DNA from: Candidatus Fervidifonticultor quintus | Lineage (GTDB): Bacteria; Sysuimicrobiota; Sysuimicrobiia; Sysuimicrobiales; Humicultoraceae | DNA length: 36,701 nt | Reading direction: 5' to 3' | NCBI GenBank assembly: GCA_031459535.1 | Contig: JAVKIJ010000025.1 | Span: 1-36,701, forward strand | Shown here: piece after piece, positions 14,160-36,701 of the stretch | Position numbering within the stretch: position 1 is the stretch's first letter | Layout of the letters: every line of letters begins with the position of its first letter | Made by a program: the position numbers and the translations under genes | Notes under the pieces: model-generated | Database searches by the model: none | Told to the model about the DNA's origin: nothing | What the model saw: the letters and a program-made list of their open reading frames with translations, nothing else

Positions 14160-14624
14160 GTGGCCGGGCTCGCGCTTGGCAAGACGGTGGACGAACTGGC
14201 AGTCGGCGATCGGGCCTCAGTCACCAAGATCGTCACGGAGACCGACATCCACCTGTACGTGGGCATGACCGGCGACCTCAACCCGCTGTACGTGGACGAA
14301 GCATACGCGGTGCGCAGCCGGTACAAGGGCCGCATCGCCCCGGGGATCCTCACGGCGGGGCTGGTCATTGCGGTGATCAGTACCAAGCTGCCCGGGCCGG
14401 GCACGATCCTGGAGCAGCAGTCGTTCCACTTCACGGCGCCGGTGCGCCCCGGCGACGCCATCACCGCGTTCGTCGAGGTGACAGAGGTGATGCTGTCGCG
14501 GGGACGCGCACGGCTGCGGACCGTGTGCAAGAACCAGGACGGGGTGCCGGTGCTGGAAGGGGAGATGACGGTGCTGCCTCCGCCGCGCGTGCACCCGGCT
14601 GGAGGGGTCGAGGGCTTTCGGTGA
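14160..14624 (+). CDS. MaoC/PhaJ-like hot-dog fold protein (catalytic His replaced by Tyr)
   Basis: TGDLNPLYVDEAYA, RIAPG, LPGPGTI, FTAPVRPGD, CKNQDG; RBS AGGAGG. Confidence 0.85.
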   Translation: MAGLALGKTVDELAVGDRASVTKIVTETDIHLYVGMTGDLNPLYVDEAYAVRSRYKGRIAPGILTAGLVIAVISTKLPGPGTILEQQSFHFTAPVRPGDAITAFVEVTEVMLSRGRARLRTVCKNQDGVPVLEGEMTVLPPPRVHPAGGVEGFR

Positions 14625-16021
14625 CCTACGAGCAGGCGCTGGTGTACATTGAGGGGCTGCTGGTCGGCCGGATGCCGTCGCCGCAACCGTACACGCCCCT
14701 CAAGCTGGAGCGTATGCGCCACCTATGCGCGTTGCTCGGCCACCCCGAGCGAGGCTTCCCGGCGGTTCTCGTAGCCGGCACCAAGGGCAAGGGCTCCACC
14801 TCCGCGATGATCGCCGCCATGGCCACAGAGGCTGGCTGGCGGGTGGGTCTGTATACCAAGCCCCACTTGGTCGACTTCAGAGAGCGCATACGGGTCAACG
14901 GCGTCTTGATCCCGCCGGACGACCTGGTGCCGCTCGTCGAGGAGCTCAGGGACGCCATAGAAGGGACACTGGACGAGCCGGGATGGCCGCCCACGTACTT
15001 CGAAGCCTCAGCCGCCCTGGCATTCATGTACTTCACCCGCTTTCCTGTGGACCTGGCGGTGATCGAGGTCGGTATCGGCGGCCGGCTCGATGCGACCAAC
15101 GTGGTGGAGCCGCGCGTCTCGGTGATCACCACCGTGGGCTACGATCACACCGACCTCTTCGGCAACAACCTGCGGCGGATCGCGGCGGAGGACACCGGCA
15201 TCATGCGTGCCGGCCGGGTTGTCGTGGCTGCCCCGCAGCCCCCGGCGGCGCGCGAGGTGATCGAACAGGCCGCGGTTGCCCAGGGGGCCACGCTGGTTCG
15301 GGTCGGGCGGGACGTCCGCTACCGGACGCTGCGGTCCACCGAAGCGGGCGTCCGCCTCTCGGTCCGGGGCCGGAGGGGTCACTACCGGGACCTGGCCGTG
15401 CCACTGCTGGGCCAGCACCAGGCCATCAACGCGGCGGCGGCGATCGCTGTGGTCGAAGCCCTGGCCGAGGAGGGGCTGATGATTGCCGAGCCCGCCATCC
15501 GCGCCGGCCTTGCCGGGCTGCGCTGGCCGGCTCGCATCGAGATCGTCCGCGAACGTCCCACGGTCATCGTAGATGTGGCCCACAACGTGGTGTCGTTTCG
15601 GGCCCTGCGGGCCGTGCTCGATGGCGTCTTCGCCCGCCGCAGGGTGGCGCTGGTCATCGGGCTGCTCGGCACCAAGGACCTGGGAGGCATTGCCCGCGTC
15701 ATCGGCCCACGGGCCGCGCTCGTGGTGGCGACCCGGGCCCACGACGAGCGCGCGCTGCCGGCGTCTGCCGTCGCAGAGGCGTTTCGGCCGGTGGCACCAG
15801 AGGTGCACGTGGTCGAGGACCCGGTCCGAGCCGCCCAATTCGCCATGGCGGCATGCGGCGACCACGATGTGGTTTGCGTCACGGGCTCGTTTCACGTCGC
15901 CGGGCCCGTGCGGGCCCACTTGGTGGGCGCCGCCGTGGGCGAGCGGGTAGGGGAGCCCGGCCATTGGCCGGGGTGGGCCCTTGGGGTGCCCGTGGCAGAG
16001 GGGGTGGAGAGGGTGCCATGA
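14621..16021 (+). CDS. folC: Folylpolyglutamate synthase / dihydrofolate synthase
   Basis: VAGTKGKGST, YTKPHL..FRERI, EVGIGGRLDATNV, GQHQAINAA, WPARIE, DVAHN, VTGSF. Start GTG 14621 overlaps the upstream stop (GTGA). Confidence 0.92.
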   Translation: MTYEQALVYIEGLLVGRMPSPQPYTPLKLERMRHLCALLGHPERGFPAVLVAGTKGKGSTSAMIAAMATEAGWRVGLYTKPHLVDFRERIRVNGVLIPPDDLVPLVEELRDAIEGTLDEPGWPPTYFEASAALAFMYFTRFPVDLAVIEVGIGGRLDATNVVEPRVSVITTVGYDHTDLFGNNLRRIAAEDTGIMRAGRVVVAAPQPPAAREVIEQAAVAQGATLVRVGRDVRYRTLRSTEAGVRLSVRGRRGHYRDLAVPLLGQHQAINAAAAIAVVEALAEEGLMIAEPAIRAGLAGLRWPARIEIVRERPTVIVDVAHNVVSFRALRAVLDGVFARRRVALVIGLLGTKDLGGIARVIGPRAALVVATRAHDERALPASAVAEAFRPVAPEVHVVEDPVRAAQFAMAACGDHDVVCVTGSFHVAGPVRAHLVGAAVGERVGEPGHWPGWALGVPVAEGVERVP

Positions 16022-16710
16022 TCGTCGCGGAGCGCAAGTCCCTTGAGGCAATCCTCCAGATGATGGCCCCGTACCGCAAGGTCCTGGTCGTGGGATGCGC
16101 CACCTGCACATCGGTCTGCCTGGCCGGCGGTGCCCGCGAGGTGGCCATGCTGGCCCCGCTGGTGCGCATGGCCCGACAGACTCGTGGCGAGCCGCCGCTG
16201 GAAGTGCTGGAGGCAACGGCACAGCGGCAGTGCGACCGGGAGTTCCTGCTGCCCCTGGCAGCCCAGGTCGAGGAAGCGGAGGCGGTCTTCTCCATGGCGT
16301 GCGGGTGCGGGGTCCAGTTGCTGGCTGAGACCTACCCGCAGCGCCGTACCTTCCCCCTGCTAGACACCAAGTTTATGGGCGTCGTCCTCGAGCCGGGGTG
16401 GTGGGCCGAGCGGTGCCGGGGGTGCGGCGAGTGCGTGCTGGACCGCACCGGCGGCATCTGCCCCATCACCCGGTGTTCCAAGGGGCTCCTCAACGGCCCC
16501 TGCGGCGGTTACCGCGACGGGAAGTGTGAGGTGGACCCCAGCGTGGACTGCGGGTGGCTGTTGATCTTCCAGCGCCTGCGGGAGCTGGGGGAACTGGAGC
16601 GGATGCGCGAGATTCTGGGTCCGAAGGACTGGTCAGTGGCCGCAGTCGGCCGGCCGCGGCGCGTGGTGCGAGACGACATGAGGCAATCCATCGAGGAGGT
16701 ACCCGCATGA
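16018..16710 (+). CDS. metV: Methylene-THF reductase Fe-S/Zn subunit MetV
   Basis: Starts at ATG 16018 (ATGA overlap with folC). GCATCTSVC, RQCD, ACGCG, CRGCGECVL..TGGICPITRCSKGLLNGPCGG...CEV....CGW. Confidence 0.9.
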   Translation: MIVAERKSLEAILQMMAPYRKVLVVGCATCTSVCLAGGAREVAMLAPLVRMARQTRGEPPLEVLEATAQRQCDREFLLPLAAQVEEAEAVFSMACGCGVQLLAETYPQRRTFPLLDTKFMGVVLEPGWWAERCRGCGECVLDRTGGICPITRCSKGLLNGPCGGYRDGKCEVDPSVDCGWLLIFQRLRELGELERMREILGPKDWSVAAVGRPRRVVRDDMRQSIEEVPA

Positions 16711-18438: not shown

Positions 18439-19338
18439 ATGACCCTGCGCGAGGCGCTGAGCAGCGGCGCGTTCGTCGTGACCGTCGAGGCGGCGCCACC
18501 CAAAGGCACGGCGGTGGAAGGGGTCCTGGCCGAGGCGGAGAAGCTGCGCGGCCGCGTGCAGGCGTTCAACGTGACGGATCAACAGAGCTCCGTCATGCGC
18601 CTGGGATCCCTGGCCCTCTGCCACCTGCTTGCCGAGCGGGGTCTGGAGCCCGTCTACCAGGTGACCTGCCGCGACCGCAACCGCATCGCGCTGCAGTCCG
18701 ACCTGTTGAGCGCGGCGGCTTTGGGGATCGAGAACGTGCTGTGTCTCACTGGTGACCACGTTAGCATGGGCGATCACCCCCAGGCCAAGCCCGTCTTCGA
18801 CCTGGACGCGGTCACGCTGCTGCAGGCGGCGCGGGCGCTGATGGAGGGCCACGATCTGGCCGGGAAGGAGCTGGCCGGCGCCCCGCGCTTCTTCCTCGGC
18901 GCCGTCGTGAGCCCGTGCGCCGAGCCGCTCGAGCCCCAGATCTTCAAGATGGAAAAGAAGGTGCGCGCCGGGGCGGCGTTCTTCCAGACCCAGGCCATCT
19001 TCGACCTGGGCCGGTACGCGGCGTTTCACGAGGCGACGCGCGGCATGGGCGTGCCGGTGCTCGCCGGGCTGGTGATGCTCAAGTCGGCCAAGATGGCCCG
19101 GTTCATGAACCAGAACGTCCCGGGCGTCTTTGTGCCCGGTGCGCTCATCGCCGAGATGGAAGCCGCCAAGGACGCCAGAGAACGCGAGCGCGCCAGCGTG
19201 GAGATCACCGCCCGCCTGATCCGGGGGCTCCGGGGGCTGGCCGCGGGCATCCATATCATGGCCATGGGCTGGGACCATCTCATCCCGCGGGTGCTGGAGG
19301 CCGCTGGCCTGCAGCAGCAGCCTGTGGAGGCGGCGTGA
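18439..19338 (+). CDS. metF: Methylene-THF reductase flavoprotein subunit MetF
   Basis: NVTD, TCRDRNRIALQSDLL, LCLTGDH, KKVRAGAAFFQTQ, GIHIM. Confidence 0.93.
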   Translation: MTLREALSSGAFVVTVEAAPPKGTAVEGVLAEAEKLRGRVQAFNVTDQQSSVMRLGSLALCHLLAERGLEPVYQVTCRDRNRIALQSDLLSAAALGIENVLCLTGDHVSMGDHPQAKPVFDLDAVTLLQAARALMEGHDLAGKELAGAPRFFLGAVVSPCAEPLEPQIFKMEKKVRAGAAFFQTQAIFDLGRYAAFHEATRGMGVPVLAGLVMLKSAKMARFMNQNVPGVFVPGALIAEMEAAKDARERERASVEITARLIRGLRGLAAGIHIMAMGWDHLIPRVLEAAGLQQQPVEAA

Positions 19339-19339
19339 C

Positions 19340-22300
19340 GTGATCGAGCGAGAGGCCATCGATCGGTGCGGCCTGTTCGCCGGCCTCTCGGCGTCGGCGC
19401 GGGATCTGGTCGCCTCAATGGGCAAGGTCGTGACCTTCCGGCCCGGCGAGCGCGTCTTCAACGAGGGCGAGGAGGCCCGGTACCTGTATGTGATTCACGA
19501 GGGCCGGGTGGCCCTCGAGATGCGTCCGCCGCGGCCGGATGGTGACGCTCCCCGGTCGGTGGTCGTGACCGTGCTGGGCCCCGGCGACCCCCTGGCGTGG
19601 TCGGCGGTGGTGCCGCCGTTTGTGCTGACCATGTCCGCAGTGTGCATCGAACCCACGGTGCTGGTGGCCCTGGACGCGCGTCCCCTGCGGCGGTTGATCA
19701 CCCTCGACTGGGAGACCGGATACGCCATCATGGCGGGGCTGGTCGACCTGATCCTGTCCAGGCTCTCGACCATCCGGGCGCGCATGGCCCAGATCCACGC
19801 GGCGGCGGCGTTCGACCTGCGGGCGCCCGCCATGCGGGTCGCCACCTATCTGGAGTCGGTCCTGGCCGGCTACGCCGGAGAACTGACCGCCGACCAGCGG
19901 CACATCCTCCAGGGGTGCCGCGAGCGTCTGCAGGCCCAGATCGATGTGCTGGACCGCCTCCTTCGGGTGCCGGCTCCCGGCGACGAGCCGTTTGAGCGCG
20001 GGGAAATGACCCCGGGAGCGGTCGAGCCCGGCAAAGAAGGCGCCGGGCCCACGGACGGCAACGGGGCGCCCGTCGGCGCCGCAATGGTCGTGGGCGGCGG
20101 GATCGCGGGCATCCAGGCCGCCCTGGACCTCGCCGATGCGGGCATCAAGGTGTACCTGGTCGAGCGCGGCCCCGCCATCGGCGGCCGCATGGCGACCCTG
20201 GACAAGACCTTCCCCACCAACGACTGCGCCATGTGCATCCTGTCGCCCAAGCTCTCGGGCGTGGGGAGGCATCCCAACGTCGAGATCTTGACGCTGGCGG
20301 AACTGCAGCGGTTGGAGGGCGCCGCCGGGGACTTCGTAGCGACAGTGCGGCGGCGACCGCGCTTCGTGGACCCCCTGCGCTGCACGGCATGCGGTGACTG
20401 CGCCGCGGTCTGCCCCGTGAGCCTGCTCAGCGAGTTCGACGCGGGCCTCGCCGAGCGCAGGGCGATCTTCCGACCCTACGCCCAGGCCGTGCCCGGAGCC
20501 TATGCCATTGACAAGCGGGGGCGCGCGCCGTGCCGCGACGCCTGTCCCATCCACCAGCGCGCCCAGGGCTACGTGGCGCTGGTGGCCCAGGGGAGGTATG
20601 AAGAGGCCTTCAGGGTCATCGCCGACGACAACCCCTTCCCCGGCATCTGCGGCCGCGTCTGCAACCACCGATGCGAGGACGCATGCTCCCGGGGGTTGCT
20701 CGACGGCGCGGTGAACATCGCCGGCCTAAAGCGGTTCGTCGCCGACTGGATGTACGCGCGGCCGCGCCAGCCGGTTCAGCGCGCCGCCGTGCGGTACTCG
20801 GAGCGCGTGGCCGTGGTAGGTTCAGGGCCCGCGGGATTGACCGCGGCGCGTGACTTGGCGTTGCTGGGCTATCAGGTCACCGTCTTCGAGGCGCTGCCCG
20901 TCGCCGGGGGCATGATGCGTGTGGGCATCCCCGAGCACCGCCTCCCGACCGCCATCGTCGAGCGCGAGATCGCCGACATTGCCGACCTGGGGGTCGAGAT
21001 TCGCTGCAACAGCCGCATCGCCCATGTCCGCGACCTGCTCGCCGACGGTTTTGCGGCGGTGTTCGTGGCCAGTGGCGCGCACCGGGCCCGGCGCCTGCCG
21101 ATTCCCGGCGCCGAGTTGCCGGGCGTCCTGGTCAGCACCGACGTGCTCCAGAACGCCCGCCTGGGCAGGCCGGTGGCGCTGGGCCGACGGGTGCTGGTGT
21201 TGGGCGGCGGCAACGTCGGGTTCGACGTGGCCCGCACCTGCGTGCGCCTGGGCGCGGAGGAAGTCCGTGTGCTCTGCCCGGAGTCGCGCGAGGCGATGCC
21301 TGCCCATCCGTGGGAGATCGCCGCAGCGGAAGAAGAAGGGGTCAGGGTCCATCCTGGCACGGCGTTCGTGCGGGTGATCGAGCGCGACGGCCGGGCCGCG
21401 GGTCTGGAATGCCAGCGCGTGCGCTCGATGCGGTTCGACGAGGCGCGCCGGCTCCACCTGGATCTGGTCGAAGGCAGCGAGCATGTGTTCGAGGCGGACA
21501 CCATCGTCTTCGCCATCGGGCTGGCCGTGCAGCTCGAGCTGGTTGAGGGCCTCTCGGGCATTGAGACCACGCCCTGGGGCTCCTTGGCGGTCGACCCGGT
21601 CTCCGGGGCCACGGGTCATCCCGGCGTATTCGCCGGCGGGGATGTGGCCACCGGCACCGCGTTCGTGGTGGACGCGATCGCCGCGGGTCAGCGGGCGGCC
21701 AAAGGCATTCACGCCTACCTGAGAGGCGAGGCGCTGGCGACGAAGCTCCCGGCTCCCGTGGCGACGCTCGACCGGGCCGAAGTCGAGCGACGCCTGGCGA
21801 GGGGATTGATCCGACCGCAACCCCGCGCGACCGTTCACGCCCTGCCGCCGCAGGAGCGGCGCGCGTCGTTCGTTGAGGAGGACCTGGGGCTCACCGAGGA
21901 AGAAGCGCGGCGGGAGGCCAGCCGCTGCTTGGCGTGCGGGGCCTGCTCTGAATGTTTTGCCTGCGTCGCAGCCTGCAAGCGAGGGGCCATCAACCACGAG
22001 GAGGTCGAGCGCCTCGAGCGCCTGCGGGTCGGCGCCGTGATCCTGGCCCCTGGCATCGAGCCGTTCGATGCCACCCTCGCCGAGGCCTACGGCCTGGGCC
22101 GCTTTCCCAACGTGGTCACCGGGCCGCAGTTCGAGCGGCTGCTCTCGGCCTCGGGCCCTACTCAAGGACACATCACCCGGCCTTCGGACGGCAGAGAACC
22201 GAGGCGCATCGCGTTCCTGCAGTGCGTGGGCTCCCGTGACCAGCGCACCAAGTACTGTTCGACCGTGTGCTGCATGTACGCCACCAAGGAGGCCATCCTG

Positions 22301-24493
22301 GCCCGGGAGCACGCGCCGGATGCGGAGTGCACGGTCTACTACGCCGACCTCCGCGCGTTTGGCAAGGGGTTCGACGCCTACATCGAACGGGCCAGGCGCG
22401 CAGGGGTGCGTTACGTCCGCACGCGGGTCGCCGCGCTGCGCGAGGATCCGCGTACGCGCTCGCTTTCCTTCAGGGTGGAAGAGAACGGTCAGATCCGCGA
22501 AGAGGAGGCCGACCTAGTCGTCCTCTCCGTGGGCCTGACCCCGCCGGCCGGCGCCGCGGCCCTGGCCACCGCCGCGGGCATCGAGCTCGACGGTTACGGG
22601 TTCGCCAGGACCTCCCCCACCTCGCCCCTGCAGACATCCCGCGCCGGGGTGTTCGCCGCCGGGGGATTCCGCGGTCCCAAGGACATCCCCGATTCAGTGA
22701 CCGACGGCAGCGGCGCCGCAGCCGCGGCCCTGGAGCTCATCGGTGCGGCCCGCGGCACCCAGATCGTGGCCAAGACGTATCCGCCCGAGATGACGGTGGA
22801 TCCGATCCCGCGCATCGGCGTGTTCATCTGCCACTGCGGGTCGAACATCGCCGGCGTGGTGGATGTCAGGGGCCTGGCGGCCTACGCTCGCACACTGCCG
22901 GGTGTGGCCGTGGCCGAGACGTCCATGTACACGTGCTCTGCCGACACCCTGGCGCGCATCAAGCAGGCCATCGCAGAGGAGCACCTCAACCGGGTGGTCG
23001 TGGCGAGCTGCACGCCTCGGACCCATGAGCCCATCTTCCGCGAGGCGCTGCGGGAAGCCGGGCTGAACCCGTACCTGTTCGAGATGGCCAACATCCGCGA
23101 CCAGTGCTCGTGGGTCCACGGGGCTGATCCCGCCGCGGCCACCGAGAAGGCCCGCTTGCTGATTGCCGCGGCTGTGGCGCGGGCGGCGCGACTGCAGCCG
23201 CTGCACAAGGTGCCGGTGCCGATGCGAGGCGAGGCGCTGGTGGTCGGCGGCGGGGTGGCCGGATTGACCGCGGCGCTCAACCTGGCCGACCAGGGCTTCC
23301 CGGTGACGCTGGTGGAGCGCGATGCTGCCCTTGGCGGCCGACTGCGCGCCTCGCGCCTCGCACGGGACGGTGAGCCCTCGGGCGCCGAGATCGCAGACCG
23401 GCTGATCGCGCGGGCCCGGGCCCATCCGAAACTCACCGTGCTGACCGGGTGCCACGTGGTCGCCTCGCGCGGTACCGTCGGCAACTTCGAGACCACCCTG
23501 GCTGGGCCCGACGGCGAACGCACCGTGCGGCACGGTGTCACGATCCTCGCCACGGGCCTCCAGGAGTGGCACCCGAGCCCCTACGGCGTCGGCGAGGACC
23601 CCCGGGTGATCACCCTGTCGGCGTTCGAGGCGAAGATCGCCGAGGGGGCGTGGCAGGAGCCTCCTCGCGCCGTGGCCATGTTGCTGTGCGCGGGCCCCTG
23701 GGATCGGATGCCGTTCTACTGCAGCCGCACCTGTTGTGCGCAATCTCTGGCCGCAGCCCTGGCCTTCAAACGCGCACATCCCCAGGCGTCGGTGGCGGTC
23801 CTGGTCCGCGAGGTCCGCACCTATGGGTTCACCGAAGAGCTCTACACCCAAGCGCGAGCGGCCGGGGTCCAGATATTCCGGTACGAGGCCGACGCGCCTC
23901 CGATCATCCAGCGCGCGCCGGAAGGCGTCGCCGTCACCGTGCGCGACCCGAGCCTGGGTGAAGTCCTGACGCTGGGGGCAGACCTGCTGGTGGTCTCGCC
24001 GGCCCAGGTGCCATCGGACGGCGCGGGTGAGCTGTCCAATCTGTTCAAGGTGCCGGCCTCGGCGGAGGGTTTCTTCCTGGAGGCCCACGTCAAGCTGCGG
24101 CCCGCGGACTTCGCCAGCGAGGGCCTGTTCCTCTGCGGCGGCGCGCACTATCCCAAGCCGGCGGGCGAGGCGATCGCCCAGGCCCTGGCCGCCGCCGCTC
24201 GCGCCAGCACCCTGCTGTGGCGCGACAGCCTCGAGGTGGGCGGCGTGGTGGCGTCGGTCGACCGCGACCGGTGCACGAAGTGCCTGACCTGCCTACGGCT
24301 GTGCGCGTATGACGCCATTGTGTTCGACGCCGACGGCATCGCGGTCGTGGAACCGACTCGCTGCCAGGGATGCGGTCTGTGCGTGGCCGCCTGCCCGGGC
24401 AGCGCGCTCAGCCTGGGGCACTACACGCGCGACCAGATGCTCGCCAAGATCGACGCGTTGCTCGGCGAAATGGAGGCCGTGCATGCCTCCTGA
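19340..24493 (+). CDS. hdrA: Large HdrA-like flavoprotein (HdrL type: two HdrA modules plus inserted GltD-like NAD(P)H module) with N-terminal cNMP-binding and HisKA-like domains
   Basis: 1717 aa with no internal stop; RBS GGAGG before GTG 19340. Residues ~1-150 look like a cNMP beta-roll (VFNEGEEARYLYVIHEGRVAL). Residues ~158-208 read FDLRAP...GYAGELTADQRHIL. HdrA motifs: VVGGGIAG, LDKTFPTNDCAMC, CVGSRD..YCSTVCC, FICHCG.NI, CTPRTHE, NIRDQCSWVH. GltD insert from PCRDACP to RCLAC. C-terminal 2x[4Fe-4S]. Confidence 0.92.
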   Translation: MIEREAIDRCGLFAGLSASARDLVASMGKVVTFRPGERVFNEGEEARYLYVIHEGRVALEMRPPRPDGDAPRSVVVTVLGPGDPLAWSAVVPPFVLTMSAVCIEPTVLVALDARPLRRLITLDWETGYAIMAGLVDLILSRLSTIRARMAQIHAAAAFDLRAPAMRVATYLESVLAGYAGELTADQRHILQGCRERLQAQIDVLDRLLRVPAPGDEPFERGEMTPGAVEPGKEGAGPTDGNGAPVGAAMVVGGGIAGIQAALDLADAGIKVYLVERGPAIGGRMATLDKTFPTNDCAMCILSPKLSGVGRHPNVEILTLAELQRLEGAAGDFVATVRRRPRFVDPLRCTACGDCAAVCPVSLLSEFDAGLAERRAIFRPYAQAVPGAYAIDKRGRAPCRDACPIHQRAQGYVALVAQGRYEEAFRVIADDNPFPGICGRVCNHRCEDACSRGLLDGAVNIAGLKRFVADWMYARPRQPVQRAAVRYSERVAVVGSGPAGLTAARDLALLGYQVTVFEALPVAGGMMRVGIPEHRLPTAIVEREIADIADLGVEIRCNSRIAHVRDLLADGFAAVFVASGAHRARRLPIPGAELPGVLVSTDVLQNARLGRPVALGRRVLVLGGGNVGFDVARTCVRLGAEEVRVLCPESREAMPAHPWEIAAAEEEGVRVHPGTAFVRVIERDGRAAGLECQRVRSMRFDEARRLHLDLVEGSEHVFEADTIVFAIGLAVQLELVEGLSGIETTPWGSLAVDPVSGATGHPGVFAGGDVATGTAFVVDAIAAGQRAAKGIHAYLRGEALATKLPAPVATLDRAEVERRLARGLIRPQPRATVHALPPQERRASFVEEDLGLTEEEARREASRCLACGACSECFACVAACKRGAINHEEVERLERLRVGAVILAPGIEPFDATLAEAYGLGRFPNVVTGPQFERLLSASGPTQGHITRPSDGREPRRIAFLQCVGSRDQRTKYCSTVCCMYATKEAILAREHAPDAECTVYYADLRAFGKGFDAYIERARRAGVRYVRTRVAALREDPRTRSLSFRVEENGQIREEEADLVVLSVGLTPPAGAAALATAAGIELDGYGFARTSPTSPLQTSRAGVFAAGGFRGPKDIPDSVTDGSGAAAAALELIGAARGTQIVAKTYPPEMTVDPIPRIGVFICHCGSNIAGVVDVRGLAAYARTLPGVAVAETSMYTCSADTLARIKQAIAEEHLNRVVVASCTPRTHEPIFREALREAGLNPYLFEMANIRDQCSWVHGADPAAATEKARLLIAAAVARAARLQPLHKVPVPMRGEALVVGGGVAGLTAALNLADQGFPVTLVERDAALGGRLRASRLARDGEPSGAEIADRLIARARAHPKLTVLTGCHVVASRGTVGNFETTLAGPDGERTVRHGVTILATGLQEWHPSPYGVGEDPRVITLSAFEAKIAEGAWQEPPRAVAMLLCAGPWDRMPFYCSRTCCAQSLAAALAFKRAHPQASVAVLVREVRTYGFTEELYTQARAAGVQIFRYEADAPPIIQRAPEGVAVTVRDPSLGEVLTLGADLLVVSPAQVPSDGAGELSNLFKVPASAEGFFLEAHVKLRPADFASEGLFLCGGAHYPKPAGEAIAQALAAAARASTLLWRDSLEVGGVVASVDRDRCTKCLTCLRLCAYDAIVFDADGIAVVEPTRCQGCGLCVAACPGSALSLGHYTRDQMLAKIDALLGEMEAVHAS

Positions 24494-24983
24494 AGTCGAG
24501 TCGGTTGCTGCCCGCACCCCGCCCGCACCACCGGCTGAGGCCTCCAGCGCACCGGTGCAGATCGTGGCCTTCTGCTGCTTCTACTGCGCGTATGCCGCAG
24601 CCGATCTGGCGGGCGTGATGCGCCTGTCCTACCCGCCCAACGTGAAGGTGGTGCTGCTGCCGTGCACCGGCGGGGTTGATCCGCTCTACATCCTACGCGC
24701 CTTCGAGGCCGGGGCGGACGGCGTGTTCGTGGCCGGGTGCCTGGAGGGCCAGTGCCACTACCAGGTGGGTAACCTCTATGCGCGCGGCCGCGTGGCAGAG
24801 CTGAAGCGTTATCTGGACGAAGCCGGCGTCGGCGGCGAGCGCCTGGAGATGTTCAATCTCTCGTCCGCGCAGGGGCCGCGGTTCGCGGAGATCGCCCGGG
24901 AGATGACCGAGCGCATCAGGGCCCTCGGTCCGTCGCCGGTCCGGCGGGCCGGGAAGGAGCGGGCACATGCCGCAGGCACCTAG
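24483..24983 (+). CDS. mvhD: MvhD-like [2Fe-2S] subunit
   Basis: ATG 24483 overlaps the hdrA end. AFCCFYCAYAAADLAG, LPCTG, AGADGVFVAGCLEGQCHY, ERLEMF. Confidence 0.92.
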   Translation: MPPEVESVAARTPPAPPAEASSAPVQIVAFCCFYCAYAAADLAGVMRLSYPPNVKVVLLPCTGGVDPLYILRAFEAGADGVFVAGCLEGQCHYQVGNLYARGRVAELKRYLDEAGVGGERLEMFNLSSAQGPRFAEIAREMTERIRALGPSPVRRAGKERAHAAGT

Positions 24984-26370
24984 CGCAGCGCGCGGCGGGC
25001 TCGCCGACGAGATTCGCGGCACTAGCGGCCAGGACGTGGCGCTCTGCTTCCAGTGCAAGGTATGCACCAGCGGGTGTCCCCTGGCCGGCGAGATGGACCT
25101 GGTGCCCCACGCGCTGATGCGTGCCCTGCAGGTGGGGCGCGATGCCCGCGTGCTGGGGGCCAACACGTTCTGGCTGTGCGCCTCCTGCCTGGCCTGCACG
25201 GCTCGCTGTCCTCAGGGCATCGACGTCGCCCGGGTCATGGACGGGCTGCGCATTATCGCCACGCGGCGGCGGGTACCGCCGCGGGTGCCGGAAGCGCTGA
25301 TCTTCTCCCAGGCGGCGGTGCGCAGCATTCGGATGTTCGGCCGGCTGTTCGAGGCAGGCGTGGGCGCCGAGATCAACCTGCGCACGTGGCAGCCGCTGCG
25401 TGCGGGCGCGCATGCCCTGCGTCTGTGGCGGGCGGGCAGGCTGCGCCTGCTCCCGGATCTGCCGGGCCGGCCGTCGCGCGCGCCCGCGGCGGCCGGCGAG
25501 ATTGCCTACTACCCCGGGTGCGCCCTGCACGCCAGCGCGCGAGAATACGATACGTCTGCCCGCGGCGTGGCCGAGGCGCTGGGCCTCGCGCTCCACGAGC
25601 TCGAGGGATGGCGGTGTTGCGGCGCCACGGCAGCCCACCAGACGTCTGCAGAGCTGGCCACGGACCTGCCGATGGCGAACCTGACCATGGCGGCCCAGCG
25701 CGGCTTCACCACCATCACCGCTCCGTGCGTGGCCTGCTTCTCGCGCCTCCGCTACGCCCAGGCCGCCTCACCCGAGCGCGCGCCGGCGGGGTTGCGGGTC
25801 CAGCACCTGCTACACACCCTGCTAGATGCCGGGCTGGAGGAGATCCGCCGCCGGGTGAGAAGGCCGCTGGGCGGGCTGCGCGTGGCGTGTTACTACGGCT
25901 GCCTGCTGACCCGGCCTCCGGCGATCACGGGCGCGCCGAGCGTGGAGAACCCGCGGGAGATGGACCGCATCATCGAGGCGCTGGGCGGAGAACCGGTCGA
26001 GTGGTCCTTCAAGACCGAGTGCTGCGGTGCCGGCCACGCCATCGTGAAGCCCGAAATCGTCGTAGGCTTGGTGCGCCGCATCCTGCGCAATGCGCAGGCC
26101 GCCAGCGCCGAGGCCGTGGCAGTGGCCTGTCCGCTGTGCCACCACAACCTGGACGCGCTGCAGGACGACGCCGCCCGCGCCGGCGACCTGCACCCGACCC
26201 CGGTGTTCTTCTTCACCCAGCTCTTGGCGCTGGCGTTCGGCCTCGACGAGCGGACCGTGGGTCTCGACCGGCTACTCGTAGACCCGCGGCCGCTGCTGCA
26301 GATGCGGGGGCTGCTACCGGTCGGGCCCCAGGAGCTGGGCGCGCGTGATGCGGCCCGCGCGGCAGGCTAG
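24967..26370 (+). CDS. hdrCB: Fused HdrC-HdrB protein
   Basis: HdrC clusters CFQCKVCTSGCP and CASCLACTARCP. HdrB: YYPGC, WRCCG, PCVAC, YYGCLL, ECCG, ACPLC (two CCG domains). Confidence 0.9.
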   Translation: MPQAPSAARGGLADEIRGTSGQDVALCFQCKVCTSGCPLAGEMDLVPHALMRALQVGRDARVLGANTFWLCASCLACTARCPQGIDVARVMDGLRIIATRRRVPPRVPEALIFSQAAVRSIRMFGRLFEAGVGAEINLRTWQPLRAGAHALRLWRAGRLRLLPDLPGRPSRAPAAAGEIAYYPGCALHASAREYDTSARGVAEALGLALHELEGWRCCGATAAHQTSAELATDLPMANLTMAAQRGFTTITAPCVACFSRLRYAQAASPERAPAGLRVQHLLHTLLDAGLEEIRRRVRRPLGGLRVACYYGCLLTRPPAITGAPSVENPREMDRIIEALGGEPVEWSFKTECCGAGHAIVKPEIVVGLVRRILRNAQAASAEAVAVACPLCHHNLDALQDDAARAGDLHPTPVFFFTQLLALAFGLDERTVGLDRLLVDPRPLLQMRGLLPVGPQELGARDAARAAG

Positions 26371-27030: not shown

Positions 27031-27954
27031 ATGGGTGAGGTCATTGACGGACGGGCTATCGCCGACGAGATCAAGCGCGAGCTGACCGCCGAGGTTGCCC
27101 GCCTGACGGCCGAGGGCCGCGCGCCAGGCGTGGCCACACTGCTGGTGGGTGAAGATTACGGCGCGAAGATGTACCGCCGCCAGATCGAGCGGCTCGCCTC
27201 CGAGATCGGGGTCCTCTACCGCGACCTGACTCTCCCCGCGGAGGTGACCCTCGCGGAGGTCCTCGACGCCATGGCCTCGCTCAATCGCGATCCGCAGGTG
27301 CATGGCATCCTGCCACTGAGACCCCTGCCCAAGGGCGTCCCGGAAGGCCCGGTGCTGGAGGCCATGGATCCGGCCAAGGATATCGACGGTCTCCATCCCA
27401 TCAACGCCGGACGGATGGCGCTGGGTCAGGCCCTGGTGTACCCGGCAACCCCCTGGGCGTGCTATGTGCTGCTCGAGAGATACTTCGCGGGCAAGGGGCT
27501 GGATCCCAAGCAAGCCTTCGAGGGCAAAGATCTGGTGATTGTCGGGCGCAGCAACAGCGTGGGCAAGCCCGCGTACTTCCTGGCGCTGGAGCGCAACGCC
27601 ACGCCCACTACCGTCCACTCGTTCACGTTCCGGGCAGGGGTGCTGGCGGAGCACACGAGGCGCGCCGACATCCTCATCGTGGCCATGGGCAGGGCGGAGT
27701 TCATCACTGCCGACATGGTCAAGCCCGGCGCCATCGTGGTGGATGTCGGTGTCAACATGAAGCCGGTTCTGGACAGCGCGGGCCAGCCGGTGCTGGACGA
27801 CCGCGGTAACCCGAAGAAGACGACGGTGGGCGATGTCGCCTTCGACGAGGTACGCCAGGTCGCGGGCGCCATCACCCCCGTGCCGGGCGGCGTCGGGTCG
27901 GTCACCAATGTGCTGCTCATGCAGAACGTGGTTCGGGCCGCAGGAAGGGTCTGA
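27031..27954 (+). CDS. folD: Methylene-THF dehydrogenase (FolD family, probably monofunctional)
   Basis: IDGRAIA, KDIDG.HP.N, PATP, VGRSNSVGKP, VVDVG.N, GDV, ITPVPGGVGSVT. Alternative start GTG 27022. Confidence 0.93.
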   Translation: MGEVIDGRAIADEIKRELTAEVARLTAEGRAPGVATLLVGEDYGAKMYRRQIERLASEIGVLYRDLTLPAEVTLAEVLDAMASLNRDPQVHGILPLRPLPKGVPEGPVLEAMDPAKDIDGLHPINAGRMALGQALVYPATPWACYVLLERYFAGKGLDPKQAFEGKDLVIVGRSNSVGKPAYFLALERNATPTTVHSFTFRAGVLAEHTRRADILIVAMGRAEFITADMVKPGAIVVDVGVNMKPVLDSAGQPVLDDRGNPKKTTVGDVAFDEVRQVAGAITPVPGGVGSVTNVLLMQNVVRAAGRV

Positions 27955-28003
27955 TGGTGGCTGCCGACCAGCATCGCATCTGGATACGGCCAGCGGAGAA
28001 CAC

Positions 28004-29989
28004 ATGACGCAAGTGGACAAACAAGTCATCCACGTAGACAGGCACGTCTTTGCACTTCCGCGGCTGGGGATTCCGCCCTGCCAAGCTGCTTGCCCGATTC
28101 ACCAGAACGCCCAGGGGTACATCGCCCTGGTATACGAGGGCAAGTTCGAGGAAGCGCTCAAGATGATCCTGCGGGACAATCCGCTCCCAGCGGTCTGCGG
28201 GCGCGTCTGCACCCATCCCTGCACCGTCGCATGCAGCCGTGCCACGGTCGACGAAGCCATCCACATTCCCGGTATCAAGCGATTTGTCGTCGACCATGTG
28301 CTGGCGCGTGGTGGCGACTACCAGTTGCCCCGACCCAGAAGGGAGCGCCCGGAGCGCGTCGCCATCGTCGGTAGCGGGCCGGCGGGTCTGATGTGCGCGT
28401 ATGAGCTGCGCCAGAGAGGATACCAGACCGTGGTGTTCGAGGCGCTGCCGATGGCCGGCGGGATGCTGGCGGTAGGCGTCCCGGAGTTCCGGTTGCCCCG
28501 GCGCGTGTTGCAGAGGGAGATCGGGAAACTCGAGGAGATCGGGGTCAGGATCAACCTGAACACGCCAGTCGGACCGCAGGGGATACCGCTGGAGCGGCTC
28601 AGGACGCAGTATGACGCAGTCTTTGTCGCCATCGGAGCTCATGTCGAACGTCGGCTGGAGGTGCCCGGGGAGGATCTACCGGGCGTCTGGGGCGGGCTCG
28701 AGTTCCTGAGGAGGATCAAGCTGGGCGAAGCGGTGGGCCCCCCCCTGGTCCTGGGTAGAAGGGTGTGCGTGATCGGTGGAGGCAACTCTGCCCTCGACGC
28801 CGCCCGCACGGCCCTGCGGGCCGGGGCGGAGGAGGTACGCCTCTTCTATAGGCGCACCCGGGCAGAGATGCCTGCTGACCCGGCCGAGATCGACGAAGCC
28901 CAGCGGGAGGGTGTCACGTTCGACTTTCTCGCCGCTCCCAAGGCCATCCTGGGCACCGAACGGGTCAGGGGGGTGGAATTCCTCAGGATGCAGTTGGGCC
29001 CACCTGATGAGTCAGGTCGGCCATCGCCAATTGCCATCCCCGGTTCTGAGTTCGTCGTCGACTGCGATGCAGTTATCGTTACCATCGGTCAGGTGCCGGA
29101 TCTCCAGCCCCTGGGAGAGCGGCTCGGCCTGCGGTCGACCCGGTGGGGGACCCTGGACGCCGACCCACTGACCCTCCAGACGAACGTGGAAGGCGTCTTT
29201 GCCGGAGGCGACTGCGTCAGCGGCCCGGACGTGATCGTGGCGGCCATGGCCGCGGGCAAGAAGGCCGCCATCTCCATCGACCGCTTCTTGAGTGGGCTGG
29301 ATCTTCGCCGCGTGGCCAGGGAACTGGTAGGCGGCAGCCCCGTCAAGGTCGAGACCCAGGGCATTCCCGCGCGGCCGCGGGTGCCGATGCCGGCCATCGA
29401 GTTGGGACGGCGCGGCGGATTCGAAGAGGTGCACACCGGCTACTGTGAGGAGCTGGCCCGGGCGGAGGCGAGCCGCTGCCTCGAGTGTGCCAGCGGCGGC
29501 GATCCGCTCGCCGAACCGCTGCCGCGCGAACTCGCGGCCATCCTGGAGCGCCACCGGGGCCGCGACGACGTGCTTGTGATCGTGCTGCAGCAGGTCCAGG
29601 CGCAGTACGGGTACCTTTCCGAGCGCGCCCTGCGATATGCCTCCAGGGAGCTAGACATTTCGCTGGCGCGCATGTACGGCGTGGCCACGTTCTACAACCA
29701 GTTCCGCTTCACCCCGCCGGGACGGGTCCAGCTGCAGGTGTGCTGCGGTACGGCCTGCCACGTCGGTGGCGCCCCTTCCATCCTGGAACGGCTCAAGGCC
29801 CACCTGCAGATCGCCGAGAACCAGACGACTCCGGACGGGGTCTTCACGCTCCAGACCGTCTTCTGCGTCGGGTGCTGCAGCCTGGCCCCCGTCGTCATCG
29901 CCAACGGGGCGGCACACGGCCGTATGACACCGGGGCGGGCAGAGAGCCTGGCGCGCGATCTACGAGCCGCGGAGGAGGGCCGTCAGTGA
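28004..29989 (+). CDS. Fusion of GltD/NfnB-like FAD/NADPH oxidoreductase with C-terminal NuoE/HydC-like [2Fe-2S] domain
   Basis: ATG 28004 with RBS GGAG. PCQAACP, CGRVCTHPC...C, VGSGPAG, GGGNSALD, YRRT...MPA, FAGGD, RCLEC; then NuoE-like YGYLS, VATFYNQF, VCCGTACH, FCVGCCSLAP. Confidence 0.88.
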   Translation: MTQVDKQVIHVDRHVFALPRLGIPPCQAACPIHQNAQGYIALVYEGKFEEALKMILRDNPLPAVCGRVCTHPCTVACSRATVDEAIHIPGIKRFVVDHVLARGGDYQLPRPRRERPERVAIVGSGPAGLMCAYELRQRGYQTVVFEALPMAGGMLAVGVPEFRLPRRVLQREIGKLEEIGVRINLNTPVGPQGIPLERLRTQYDAVFVAIGAHVERRLEVPGEDLPGVWGGLEFLRRIKLGEAVGPPLVLGRRVCVIGGGNSALDAARTALRAGAEEVRLFYRRTRAEMPADPAEIDEAQREGVTFDFLAAPKAILGTERVRGVEFLRMQLGPPDESGRPSPIAIPGSEFVVDCDAVIVTIGQVPDLQPLGERLGLRSTRWGTLDADPLTLQTNVEGVFAGGDCVSGPDVIVAAMAAGKKAAISIDRFLSGLDLRRVARELVGGSPVKVETQGIPARPRVPMPAIELGRRGGFEEVHTGYCEELARAEASRCLECASGGDPLAEPLPRELAAILERHRGRDDVLVIVLQQVQAQYGYLSERALRYASRELDISLARMYGVATFYNQFRFTPPGRVQLQVCCGTACHVGGAPSILERLKAHLQIAENQTTPDGVFTLQTVFCVGCCSLAPVVIANGAAHGRMTPGRAESLARDLRAAEEGRQ

Positions 29990-31587
29990 GAGCCACCGTG
30001 AGGGTCGGGACGTCTACCTGCGGCCTGGCAACCGGTGCCGAGGCGACGTACGTCGCGCTTCAGGAGGCGGCGTCGGATCTGGGGCTGGAGATATTTGTTC
30101 AGCGCACGGGATGCCTGGGCGCATGCCACCGCGAGCCGCTGGTCGAGATTGTCACAGACGGCGCGCACGTGCTGTATGGCCCTGTGACCGGGGATCGGGC
30201 GCGGCCACTGCTGGAAGGGCACTTCATGCTGCACGGAGCGTCTCCGCCGCCGCAGGAGTGGATCGTCAGCCGCACCGCCGACCGCCGCGACTATCCGTAC
30301 TTCGCCTCACAGATCAAAGTGACGACCAGGAACTGCGGGGCGATCGACCCGCGCTCGTTGGACGACTACCTGGCCGCCGGAGGGTACGAAGGGTTGAGGT
30401 GCGCGCTGGCCATATCCCCGGAGGCCGTGATCGACGAGGTCAAGCGGAGTAAGCTGCGCGGTCGCGGCGGGGCAGGCTTTCCCACCGGCGTCAAGTGGGA
30501 GATCTGCCGGCGTCAGCCCGATCCGATCCGGTATTTGGTGTGCAACGCGGATGAGGGCGATCCCGGCGCCTTCATGGACCGGACGGTCATCGAGGGCGAC
30601 CCCCACCGGGTCCTGGAGGGCATGGCCATCGCGGCCCACGCCATCGGCGCCCACCTGGGGTACGTCTACGTCCGAGCGGAGTACCCACTGGCCGTCCGGC
30701 ACCTGGAGGCGGCAATCGAGCAGGCCCGCGAGGCAGGCTACCTCGGGACCAATATTCTCGGCTCCGGCCTGAACTTCGATGTCATCGTGAGAGAAGGAGC
30801 AGGAGCGTTTGTCTGCGGCGAGGAGACAGCCCTCATGCAGTCCATCGAGGGTAAGCGTGGCGTGCCGCGGATGCGTCCGCCGTACCCCGCAGAGTCGGGC
30901 TTGTGGGGGCACCCCACCAACATCAACAATGTGGAGACCTACGCCAGCATTCCCGACATCATGACGAGGGGTGGGGAGTGGTTTGCGGGCCTGGGGACGG
31001 CTGACAGTGGCGGGACCAAGACGTTCGCGCTTACCGGCGCGGTCAGGCTCACCGGTCTGATCGAGGTCCCCATCGGGATCACGCTGCGGGACGTTATCTT
31101 TGGGATCGGCGGCGGCATCCGGGAAGGCCGGTCCTTCAAGGCGGTGCAGATCGGCGGACCGTCCGGCGGCTGTTTATCCGCCTCACACCTGGACACGCCG
31201 GTGGACTACGGGCCGTTGAGAGCCACGGGTGCCATCATGGGGTCGGGCGGCATGGTCGTGGTGGACGACCACACCTGCATGGTGGACCTGGCGCGTTATT
31301 TCCTGCAGTTCACCCAGAGCGAGTCGTGCGGGAAGTGCGTCCCGTGCCGGATCGGGACACGCAAGATGCTGGGCATCCTCACCCGCATCACCCGCGGGGA
31401 AGGCCGGGCCGACGACATCGAGCGCCTGGAACAGGTGGCGCAGACCGTTCGTACCGCGTCGTTGTGCGGCCTGGGCCTGACCGCGCCCAATCCGGTGCTG
31501 ACCACTCTTCGCTACTTCAGACATGAGTACGAAGCGCATGTTCATGACCGGACGTGCCCAGCCGGCGCGTGCGCCGGCTCGAGGTGA
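29986..31587 (+). CDS. nuoF: NuoF/HydB-like FMN/NADH-binding subunit lacking the C-terminal ferredoxin domain
   Basis: GTG 29986 (GTGA overlap). N-terminal thioredoxin-like domain (TCG...GCLGACHREP), RGRGGAGFPTG, CNADEGDPGAFMDR, FVCGEETAL, GGPSGG, ESCGKCVPCR...SLCGLG; ends CPAGACAGSR. Confidence 0.9.
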   Translation: MRATVRVGTSTCGLATGAEATYVALQEAASDLGLEIFVQRTGCLGACHREPLVEIVTDGAHVLYGPVTGDRARPLLEGHFMLHGASPPPQEWIVSRTADRRDYPYFASQIKVTTRNCGAIDPRSLDDYLAAGGYEGLRCALAISPEAVIDEVKRSKLRGRGGAGFPTGVKWEICRRQPDPIRYLVCNADEGDPGAFMDRTVIEGDPHRVLEGMAIAAHAIGAHLGYVYVRAEYPLAVRHLEAAIEQAREAGYLGTNILGSGLNFDVIVREGAGAFVCGEETALMQSIEGKRGVPRMRPPYPAESGLWGHPTNINNVETYASIPDIMTRGGEWFAGLGTADSGGTKTFALTGAVRLTGLIEVPIGITLRDVIFGIGGGIREGRSFKAVQIGGPSGGCLSASHLDTPVDYGPLRATGAIMGSGGMVVVDDHTCMVDLARYFLQFTQSESCGKCVPCRIGTRKMLGILTRITRGEGRADDIERLEQVAQTVRTASLCGLGLTAPNPVLTTLRYFRHEYEAHVHDRTCPAGACAGSR

Positions 31588-31597
31588 GGTGGTGGCG

Positions 31598-36437: not shown

Positions 36438-36438
36438 G

Positions 36439-36701
36439 ATGGAGAGAGCGACCAACACCATCCGCGTCCTGATCGTTGACGATCACGCGCTCGTGCGCGA
36501 GGGCATCAAGTCCCTGCTCCAGGGCATTCCGCAGATCGAGGTGGTGGGGGAGGCCGAGGACGGACTGGCGGCCATCGAGCAGGCCCGACTCCTTCGGCCC
36601 GACGTGGTGCTGATGGACATCGGGATGCCACGGATGACCGGCGTGGAGGCCACTCGGCACATCCGCCAGGAGGTGCCCACGGCCCAGGTGGTGGCGCTCA
36701 C
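36439..36701 (+). CDS. NarL/FixJ-family response regulator (3'-truncated by window edge)
   Basis: Not in the ORF track. ATG 36439 reads [27 protein letters not shown]...EVVGEAEDG...[22 protein letters not shown]; directly follows the HisKA_3 kinase. Confidence 0.92.

Follow-up and report, generated by a model that had tools for sequence, protein, structure and literature searches.

A head of probable histidine kinase descent fused to HdrL in the methylene-tetrahydrofolate reductase gene set of Candidatus Fervidifonticultor quintus

The stretch of DNA described here, referred to as the window, comprises 36,701 nucleotides of Candidatus Fervidifonticultor quintus (contig JAVKIJ010000025.1 of assembly GCA_031459535.1, positions 1 to 36,701) and contains the gene hdrL, which encodes a 1717-residue fusion of an N-terminal sensor head, a linker, and an HdrL core (19340..24493, from the reading frame and Pfam/NCBIfam scans; all window features given below lie on the + strand). 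With high confidence, the head is the sensor and dimerization half of a kinase of the cNMP_binding-HisKA-HATPase_c type, and its anatomy and descent are largely established. With moderate confidence, it is assigned a role as an accessory, non-catalytic regulatory module that makes a putative methylene-tetrahydrofolate (methylene-THF) reductase complex, MetFV-HdrL-MvhD-HdrCB (as judged from its gene set), responsive to a signal in its activity or assembly.

The reading frame of hdrL is open from a GTG codon at 19340 to the stop at 24493, and the first HdrA Rossmann motif (GGGIAG, residues 252–257) comes after approximately 250 residues without a stop. A ribosome-binding site, GGAGG (19326..19330, read directly), lies 9 nucleotides 5′ of the GTG within the 3′ end of metF. 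The TGA stop codon of metF (19336–19338) is separated from the GTG by a single base, and metF and hdrL are therefore translationally coupled. A first-pass annotation of the window, made from the DNA letters, had recorded a good ribosome-binding site before GTG 19340 and about 245 stop-free residues ahead of the FAD motif, and both observations stand. Orthologues share the start position at the same aligned residue, with ATG in some, and Met223 (ATG 20006) is not conserved among them in the alignment.

The first-pass annotation had also named sequencing data as a check on the junction and on any stop or frameshift ahead of ATG 20006. DNA contigs from two runs that are possibly the source of the assembly (X1 and X2) cover 19076/19087–20227 with zero differences, and a DNA contig from another sample (X3) covers 19835–20227, also with zero differences; no indels are listed in any of the four runs (X1–X4), and the contigs across head, linker, and core contain neither a stop nor a frameshift. 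Contigs from an RNA library (X4) cover 18740–19398, from the end of metF into the head, and 19901–20169, comprising helix 2, the linker, and the FAD motif, such that both the metF-head and the head-core junctions are bridged. The RNA-library contigs leave 19410–19813 uncovered, a gap that carries no evidential weight. For DNA runs X3 and X2, the summed depth of contigs rises 10–20 fold across 20117–20318, the Rossmann/FAD-motif stretch, most likely from contigs of other organisms with the same conserved motif.

The N-terminal domain of the head adopts a cyclic nucleotide-binding (CNB) fold. Pfam cNMP_binding (PF00027) matches residues 31–120 with 43.4 bits (E 3.4e-11) in the whole protein and with 47.1 bits (E 2.4e-12) when the N-terminal 247 residues are scanned alone; the gathering cut-off is 27.5 bits, and a match of this size is well beyond chance. 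The AlphaFold2 model of the head (mean pLDDT 91.2, pTM 0.75, 75-row alignment) consists of a β-roll (residues 1–122; 19340..19705), a continuous helix in which the CNB C-helix runs into DHp helix 1 (residues 124–175; 19709..19864), a short loop, a second, DHp-like helix (residues 184–208; 19889..19963), and a low-confidence tail (residues 209–245). The best Foldseek matches of this model are cAMP-receptor proteins and the stand-alone CNB protein 3mdp (E 5e-12 to 6e-10), the latter with a TM score of 0.91 when normalized to 3mdp. No Pfam family other than cNMP_binding is found on the N-terminal piece, even at E up to 10. This includes helix-turn-helix (HTH) families: the HTH that follows the C-helix in CRP/FNR transcription factors is not found, and the C-helix continues into a helical hairpin. 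The tail corresponds to a Pro/Ala/Gly/Glu-rich linker of 37 residues (19964..20074; pLDDT 54–69) that varies in length and sequence between orthologues. The in-frame CNB-fold domain without an HTH proposed at first sight is thus real and conserved, according to Pfam, AlphaFold2, Foldseek, and the relatives. Its description as a β-roll plus C-helix holds for the β-roll; the C-helix is only the beginning of a HisKA-derived dimerization hairpin that spans residues ~124–208.

The descent of the head is revealed by its closest relatives. A search of 1.84 billion representative proteins with residues 1–245 returned 2870 proteins at E up to 0.001, and the best single-stretch matches over residues 3–212 are proteins of about 375–407 residues. 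Those scanned, namely P0015, P0016, and two genes that neighbor hdrL in related genomes, are cNMP_binding-HisKA-HATPase_c kinases. The head is 38–43% identical to such kinases across the sensor and DHp region. In a BLASTP comparison with the kinase encoded beside hdrL in genome G003, the alignment extends through the HisKA of the kinase with 38% identity over 210 residues and one gap (E 5e-45). Pfam HisKA (PF00512; cut-off 26.9 bits) is found below threshold on five of the seven heads tested (25.2, 24.8, 19.0, 16.9, and 12.2 bits) and is not found on the heads of the window and of G004 at E up to 10; the HisKA homology of the window's head is therefore taken from the alignment to kinase HisKA and not from a Pfam score. 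In a protein-cluster atlas, used as a lead only, the best cluster carries cNMP_binding at 100% and HisKA at 78%, with a score of 0.84 that lies below the 0.9 mark. The fused family is not among the best 150 matches of the representative search, which yields kinase relatives and no census of the fusion; presumably, a head-less HdrL stands for the 50% cluster of this family.

The catalytic half of the kinase is missing from the fusion. HATPase_c is absent from the Pfam tables of HdrL (25 families shown) and from the N-terminal piece, and helix 2 of the head is followed by the 37-residue linker and then the FAD motif in place of an ATPase domain. Alignment with the operon kinases, the genes of which adjoin hdrL in relatives, locates the column of the phospho-acceptor histidine; all eight of these kinases have His there. 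Among the four heads of the window's genus, g1, the residue in this column is Phe in the window (Phe158, codon TTC, 19811..19813), Phe in a second, and Ser in the other two, and among the seven heads of genus g4, it is His in six and Tyr in that of G008. With no ATPase domain and with Phe158 at the position of the histidine, the head of the window has neither hallmark of a histidine kinase and, judged by these residues and domains, cannot serve as kinase or phosphotransferase. In a 28-row tree of the sensor-DHp region, built from seven heads, four operon kinases, and 17 other kinases (the G024 kinase, which has masked bases, and the loci of G045–G048 were left out), the heads cluster with the operon kinases in a single group (support 95/90), and the stem of the heads is longer than that of the operon kinases (0.86 versus 0.41).

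A parallel dimer is predicted for the head. Complex prediction with two copies of residues 1–212 and the family alignment reaches 0.65, as compared to 0.00 for the best control; among solved structures, 20 of 30 homodimers and one of 23 monomers attain the 0.65 mark. At least 96% of contacts recur between runs, and the pLDDT of the partner is 86. The modeled interface is a parallel coiled coil along residues 124–155 with symmetric self-contacts at positions 128, 131, 135, 138, 142, 145, and 149. Helix 2 packs against helix 1 of the partner, a geometry that combines the C-helix arrangement of CRP with the four-helix bundle of DHp domains.

The pocket of the CNB domain differs from that of cyclic nucleotide receptors. 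When the head is aligned to GlxR and Mycobacterium tuberculosis CRP, both of which have been solved with cAMP and served as pocket references, its phosphate-binding cassette (residues 80–102; 19577..19645) is degenerate. Trp87 (19598–19600) occupies the position of the canonical Glu, Leu96 (19625–19627) occupies that of the canonical Arg, and of the G-E ... R-[ST]-A residues of the cassette only Thr97 is retained, in the same register as in the profile matches. The sequence GDPLAWSAVVPPFVLTMSA is present at residues 82–100, in agreement with the earlier proposal that the canonical cAMP phosphate cassette had been replaced. Since Trp87 and Leu96 stand in place of the Glu and Arg of cAMP-binding CRPs, cAMP is an unlikely ligand of the head. 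In the family alignment of 75 rows, which takes in true kinases and stand-alone CNB proteins of ~150 residues, at least 90% of rows have Trp87 and Ser88, and Gly55 and Arg141 are invariant. The Trp-Ser pair is a subfamily hallmark, and the family therefore has a pocket signature of its own, unlike that of cyclic nucleotide receptors.

A heme, Fe-S, or redox-Cys sensor was considered for the head and rejected, as the head pocket contains no conserved Cys/His pair; these residues belong to the operon kinases. The degenerate cassette of each of the eight operon kinases includes a Cys and a His (DCFGWSALVPPH, with ESF for DCF in one; e.g. L013:8310-8954), which could form a metal or cofactor ligand pair and are absent from the HdrL heads and from seven more distant kinases read at these positions.

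The fusion is found in two genera of the phylum. The first-pass annotation had suggested looking for the architecture in related genomes. Among 94 genomes from the phylum, 11 encode a head on a long reading frame: four of six in genus g1, including the present one, and seven of eight in g4. The 83 negative genomes include G013 and G022, both unpublished, on which the count in part depends. Among proteins of 944–3005 residues there are 11 head-bearing clusters including that of the window. The other ten are 60–79% identical in the head and 74–82% overall and measure 1695–1738 residues, apart from one split copy of 1356 residues. The split copy is found in G008, where the fused hdrL lies in two frames that part near core residue 1100 (a 1356-residue piece and a 455-residue frame; G008:C2:70826-75231, locus L016); the break is a frameshift, a sequencing error, or a real split. 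Of the 7787 HdrL homologues that passed E 1e-30, the best 120 listed include 12 with PF00027, all at an identity of at least 79%. In the same set of 120, the close relatives P0163–P0165 and P0167 are without PF00027, as are all distant members (57–64% identity), of which those with a source name are labeled Chloroflexota or Anaerolineae. Proteins of the relatives are labeled 'Armatimonadota bacterium' or 'Armatimonadetes bacterium CSP1-3' by their sources. A pattern search of genome contigs with the head gave 131 matches, none of which was confirmed as a relative.

Nei-Gojobori dN/dS values were calculated for ten orthologue pairs. The CNB part (0.07–0.29) and the helices (0.08–0.26) have values comparable to those of the HdrL core (0.10–0.16), and the linker has values of 0.36–1.41, with one pair saturated. 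By this measure, the head is kept under selection as strongly as the enzyme core, with the linker serving only as a tether. The G002-G004 pair, both members of which lack the kinase as does the window's genome, has a head dN/dS of 0.08.

Four states of the hdrL locus are observed. In state 0, the order is fhs-metF-hdrL and HdrL has no head. This arrangement is found in G007, G017, and G023 of genus g3, in which the operon is the same, the HdrL core is 79–80% identical, and the metF-stop/GTG junction of G023 is as in the window. In state 1, observed in G029 from another family, two response regulator genes, metF, and a kinase gene precede a head-less hdrL. State 2 has the same order with the head in place (G003, G008, G018, G045, G046, and G047, and in part G024 and G048, the contigs of which end early). 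In state 3, which comprises the window, G002, and G004, the order is fhs-metF-hdrL with the head. The response regulators of these operons are receiver-only proteins of 134–143 residues with Response_reg as their sole domain. In relatives with the kinase cassette (L013:690-6521, L017:481-6545, and L016:12936-18547), a second, more distant set of HdrA-like, hdrCB, metV, and metF genes lies just upstream of the two receiver genes; this set is 28–51% identical to the genes of the window, such that two MetFV/Hdr systems stand side by side.

Orthologues of the operon kinase and receivers were not found in the genomes of state 3. When G000, the window's genome, was searched with the G003 kinase, generic kinase halves (at most 38% identity) and the head itself were returned, and no kinase orthologue was found in G002 or G004 either (best matches 38–46% identical for kinase and receivers). 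For the receivers, generic receivers only, at most 46% identical, were returned from G000, G002, G004, and G007. A tree of the HdrL core was built from 20 rows, comprising 11 fused proteins (the split P0009 was left out), four head-less proteins, and five more distant HdrLs picked as the outgroup. The fused state requires two changes on this tree, and because the heads form one group, the two changes are most simply read as one gain followed by a loss in the g3 lineage.

The core to which the head is attached (20075..24493; Pfam, NCBIfam) comprises an HdrA-type FAD/FeS region, a GltD/NfnB-like insert, a second FAD region, and a C-terminal 2x[4Fe-4S] region. The insert is an NAD(P)H module (residues 393–800) in which Fer4_20 and Pyr_redox_2 are found at residues 395–783 and which GltD-type models match. 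The HdrA2 and HdrA models match the core in four stretches and score below their curated cut-offs (929.1 versus 1100 bits for NF040770 and 694.9 versus 1400 bits for NF041778). HdrA-type regions split by a GltD/NfnB-like module, together with mvhD downstream, identify the protein as HdrL; of the earlier label 'HdrA/HdrL', the second half is retained and plain HdrA is not, in view of the inserted NAD(P)H module. The proposed Hdr-MvhD-MetVF methylene-THF reductase context is likewise upheld by the genes, as metV, metF, hdrL, mvhD, and hdrCB are all encoded in the window. These are metV (MTHFR C-terminal-like, zinc-ribbon type, with the start MIVAERK...; family scans; 16018..16710), metF (18439..19338; PF02219, E 2.1e-37), mvhD (FlpD; family scan; 24558..24983, with an approximate start from the first residue of which relatives are conserved), and a fused hdrC-hdrB gene with an Fer4 dicluster and two CCG domains (24967..26370; family scans). 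They would together specify the putative MetFV-HdrL-MvhD-HdrCB complex.

In the proposed function of the head, the signal would be the occupancy of the hydrophobic, non-cNMP pocket, and the dimeric head would most likely pass it on by docking to the catalytic core in a signal-dependent manner, or by changing its oligomeric state, rather than by a rigid push from helix to enzyme. Docking or assembly is favored because the linker of ~37 residues between the head and the FAD domain is flexible. The outcome would be post-translational control of the redox step of methylene-tetrahydrofolate reductase. As no cognate kinase or receivers were found in the genome, the head probably acts on its own in this organism. 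Several considerations weigh against this proposal. Allosteric gating of HdrL by a small ligand, as the first-pass annotation had suggested, is an inference. The linker is close to neutral in evolution, which makes tight mechanical coupling unlikely, and the head-less orthologues, together with the gain and later loss in the core tree, show that the enzyme works without the head. Most g4 heads retain the His and adjoin a kinase and two receivers, which may mean that the head originally served in phosphotransfer or docking and not in ligand sensing. G000 is 88.85% complete, such that a kinase or receivers elsewhere in it are 'not found' rather than absent. The dimer score may only mirror the memory that the model has of solved CRP and histidine kinase dimers. 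The RNA-library contigs prove neither one transcript nor translation, and such libraries can contain DNA. Finally, G000 encodes class III nucleotide cyclase domains (five matches over the cut-off), so the case against a cyclic nucleotide is made by the pocket residues only, and genome content was dropped as an argument against cAMP.

The main rival explanation, which is considered rather improbable for the window, is that the head is the enzyme-side terminal of a two-component system, in which the DHp stub docks or exchanges phosphate with the operon kinase and its two CheY-like receivers. It could do so by 'reverse' sensing of a phosphorylated receiver as in DivL, by phosphotransfer as in Spo0B, or by forming a heterodimer with the kinase. 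The head of the present genome would then be a remnant of that system, now working with other partners. The gene order of state 2 fits such a system, as does G029, where the same kinase/receiver cassette stands beside a head-less HdrL. The receivers have no output domain and hence must act on proteins, six of the seven g4 heads retain the acceptor His, the tree groups head and operon kinase as sisters, and DivL (PDB 4q20) is among the profile matches of the head. In the window, however, metF is directly followed by hdrL, and the kinase and receiver genes are missing from the locus. Orthologues of these partners are present in relatives but were not found in G000, G002, or G004, yet the head of the G002-G004 pair is under purifying selection, and the His has been lost in all four g1 heads, including that of G003, which retains the kinase. 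The rival therefore accounts for states 1 and 2 and for the g4 His but not for state 3 of the window. A broader scenario, which is put forward tentatively, joins the two: a CNB kinase and two CheY-like receivers from within the Wood-Ljungdahl operon would signal directly to the DHp stub of HdrL, a two-component system ending on the enzyme and gating methylene-THF electron flow, and the g1 stub, having lost its His and its partners, would have become an autonomous ligand switch. If this scenario is true, the four locus states preserve stages in the absorption of a signaling pathway into a redox enzyme.

The remaining explanations rank below the two-component rival. The head could be a dimerization clamp or scaffold that stabilizes the HdrL dimer, receives no signal, and has a vestigial CNB pocket. 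HdrA of methanogens is dimeric in the solved complex, and the strong symmetric predicted dimer, the loss of the canonical ligand residues, and the flexible linker are all in keeping with a clamp. This idea is nevertheless doubtful: a clamp needs the helices only, yet the β-roll is as conserved as the helices by dN/dS, the Trp-Ser hallmark has been kept through 75 family members including true kinases, and the g3 orthologues manage without a clamp. Classical regulation by cAMP or cGMP through a functional CNB domain, for which the Pfam match and the cyclase domains of the genome could be cited, is very improbable, as the Glu and Arg that bind ribose and phosphate are replaced by Trp87 and Leu96 and the substitution is family-wide. 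It is just as hard to credit that the fusion is an assembly or frameshift error, or that an internal start leaves the head separate or untranslated. Translation of a head-less HdrL could in principle begin at ATG 20006 or at the codon for Met249, and one head-less orthologue begins six residues before the equivalent Met. Against this stand the same in-frame fusion in 11 genomes and 12 protein clusters, the contigs from three DNA runs, one of them from another sample, without indels or stops, the purifying selection on the head, the lack of conservation of Met223, and the coupled GGAGG-GTG start shared by orthologues. The preferred explanation thus remains that of a regulatory module acting on the complex.

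The fusion would mark the methylene-THF reductase step, the energetics of which are debated, as post-translationally regulated in at least one lineage, and it suggests that the enzyme is controlled directly by a signal, beyond gene expression alone. The four natural operon forms (head-less, kinase and receivers only, both, and head alone) constitute natural controls, which makes the question testable with recombinant proteins despite the organisms being uncultured. The head is also a clear case in which the sensor-DHp half of a histidine kinase has been reused without its catalytic domain, and it bears on the origins of pseudo-kinases.

The window is taken up by a long Wood-Ljungdahl cluster, which begins with genes for a multiheme cytochrome, cooC, carbon monoxide dehydrogenase (CODH), acetyl-CoA synthase (ACS), acsC, RACo, a second cooC-like gene, DUF3786, acsD, and acsE. 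A MaoC-like gene, a FolC-like Mur-ligase gene, metV, fhs, metF, hdrL, mvhD, and the fused hdrC-hdrB follow, and fchA, folD, a GltD-like/NuoE-like fusion, a NuoF-like gene, and formate dehydrogenase complete the order. Within 14525–16710, a 661-residue open reading frame that starts at 14725 extends in the wrong frame and is rich in Arg, Gly, and Pro there; the stretch appears in fact to hold the FolC-like Mur-ligase gene (14525–16021) and metV from near 16018. At 27833–29989, a second GltD/NfnB-like protein, 44% identical to the HdrL insert, is fused to a thioredoxin-like [2Fe-2S] (NuoE-type) domain, and the NuoF-like gene comes after it. The catalytic subunit of formate dehydrogenase (31523–34507) is listed as two same-frame open reading frames parted by one TGA (32732–32734; ARL-TGA-HAPSVAGL), which looks like a selenocysteine codon and not a break. 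The cluster ends with a HAMP-GAF-HisKA_3-HATPase_c kinase and a receiver-domain gene (34545–36699) that are unrelated to the family of the head.

Discussions of how flavin-based electron-bifurcating and related Hdr-type complexes are controlled turn almost wholly on gene expression and thermodynamics. In the available part of a survey of bifurcating enzymes, the terms 'sensor' and 'regulatory domain' do not occur (PMC6085437). The main text of genomic papers on phylum CSP1-3 mentions no Hdr, histidine kinase, or two-component system; the supplementary tables may list them. A literature search that combined HdrL or heterodisulfide reductase with cyclic nucleotide binding found no paper describing a signaling domain on HdrA or HdrL, in line with the initial statement that none was known on the HdrA of this complex. 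The accompanying suggestion of an undescribed system stands as far as this search of papers goes but not for databases, as JGI automatic names, which read 'heterodisulfide reductase subunit A-like polyferredoxin/CRP-like cAMP-binding protein', show both halves.

Similar to the head, the operon kinases (L013:8244-9485; cluster P0015) contain the W-S-A ... T-x-S-A pocket motif, and they form its sister group in the tree. They differ in having an ATP-binding domain, the acceptor His, and the Cys/His pair of the cassette, whereas the head is fused to an oxidoreductase and has Phe at the position of the His. We know of no experimental work on this cNMP_binding kinase subfamily, for which no literature search was made. 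The closest solved relative of the sensor family is 3mdp (Gmet_1532 of Geobacter metallireducens, from structural genomics; profile E 4.3e-34), a single-domain protein of 142 residues with no stated function and with G-V-S where the head has W-S. DivL, a pseudo-kinase of Caulobacter, is said to have a DHp domain without a working His (Tyr instead) and a protein-binding input and to work with a single-domain receiver. The head resembles DivL in its kinase-derived DHp without a working His, the Tyr being shared with the G008 head. In contrast to the head of the window, which is fused to an enzyme and has no receiver partner, DivL retains an ATPase-like domain and PAS sensors, is free-standing, and regulates another kinase. 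In the cAMP-activated protein lysine acetyltransferase of mycobacteria, an N-terminal CNB domain acts as the allosteric switch of the catalytic domain to which it is tethered. This protein shares the placement of a CNB domain on an enzyme but differs in binding cAMP, in its canonical Glu/Arg pair, and in having no DHp hairpin.

On the enzyme side, the methylene-THF reductase MetFV-HdrABC-MvhD of Moorella thermoacetica is encoded in a Wood-Ljungdahl gene cluster. As in Moorella, the metV, metF, Hdr, and mvhD partners of the window stand in one cluster. Unlike in Moorella, HdrL with its NAD(P)H module replaces HdrA, HdrC and HdrB are fused, and the N-terminal head is present; the version in the window is known from its genes alone. 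According to the available part of the source, HdrL of Desulfobacterium autotrophicum HRM2 is a large fusion of HdrA and a glutamate synthase-like protein, with an NADH-binding site and with mvhD next to it (PMC2702500). The HdrL of the window fits this definition, being an HdrA/glutamate synthase-like fusion followed by mvhD. The HRM2 proteins differ in that the same part of the source describes no N-terminal sensor on them, that their loci lie by dsr or fdh and not by metF, and that several contain selenocysteine (PMC2702500). The fusion belongs with known kinds of proteins, namely CNB-regulated enzymes, pseudo-kinase DHp modules, and HdrL, and what the window adds to them is a head without partners and without the acceptor His that is under continued selection.

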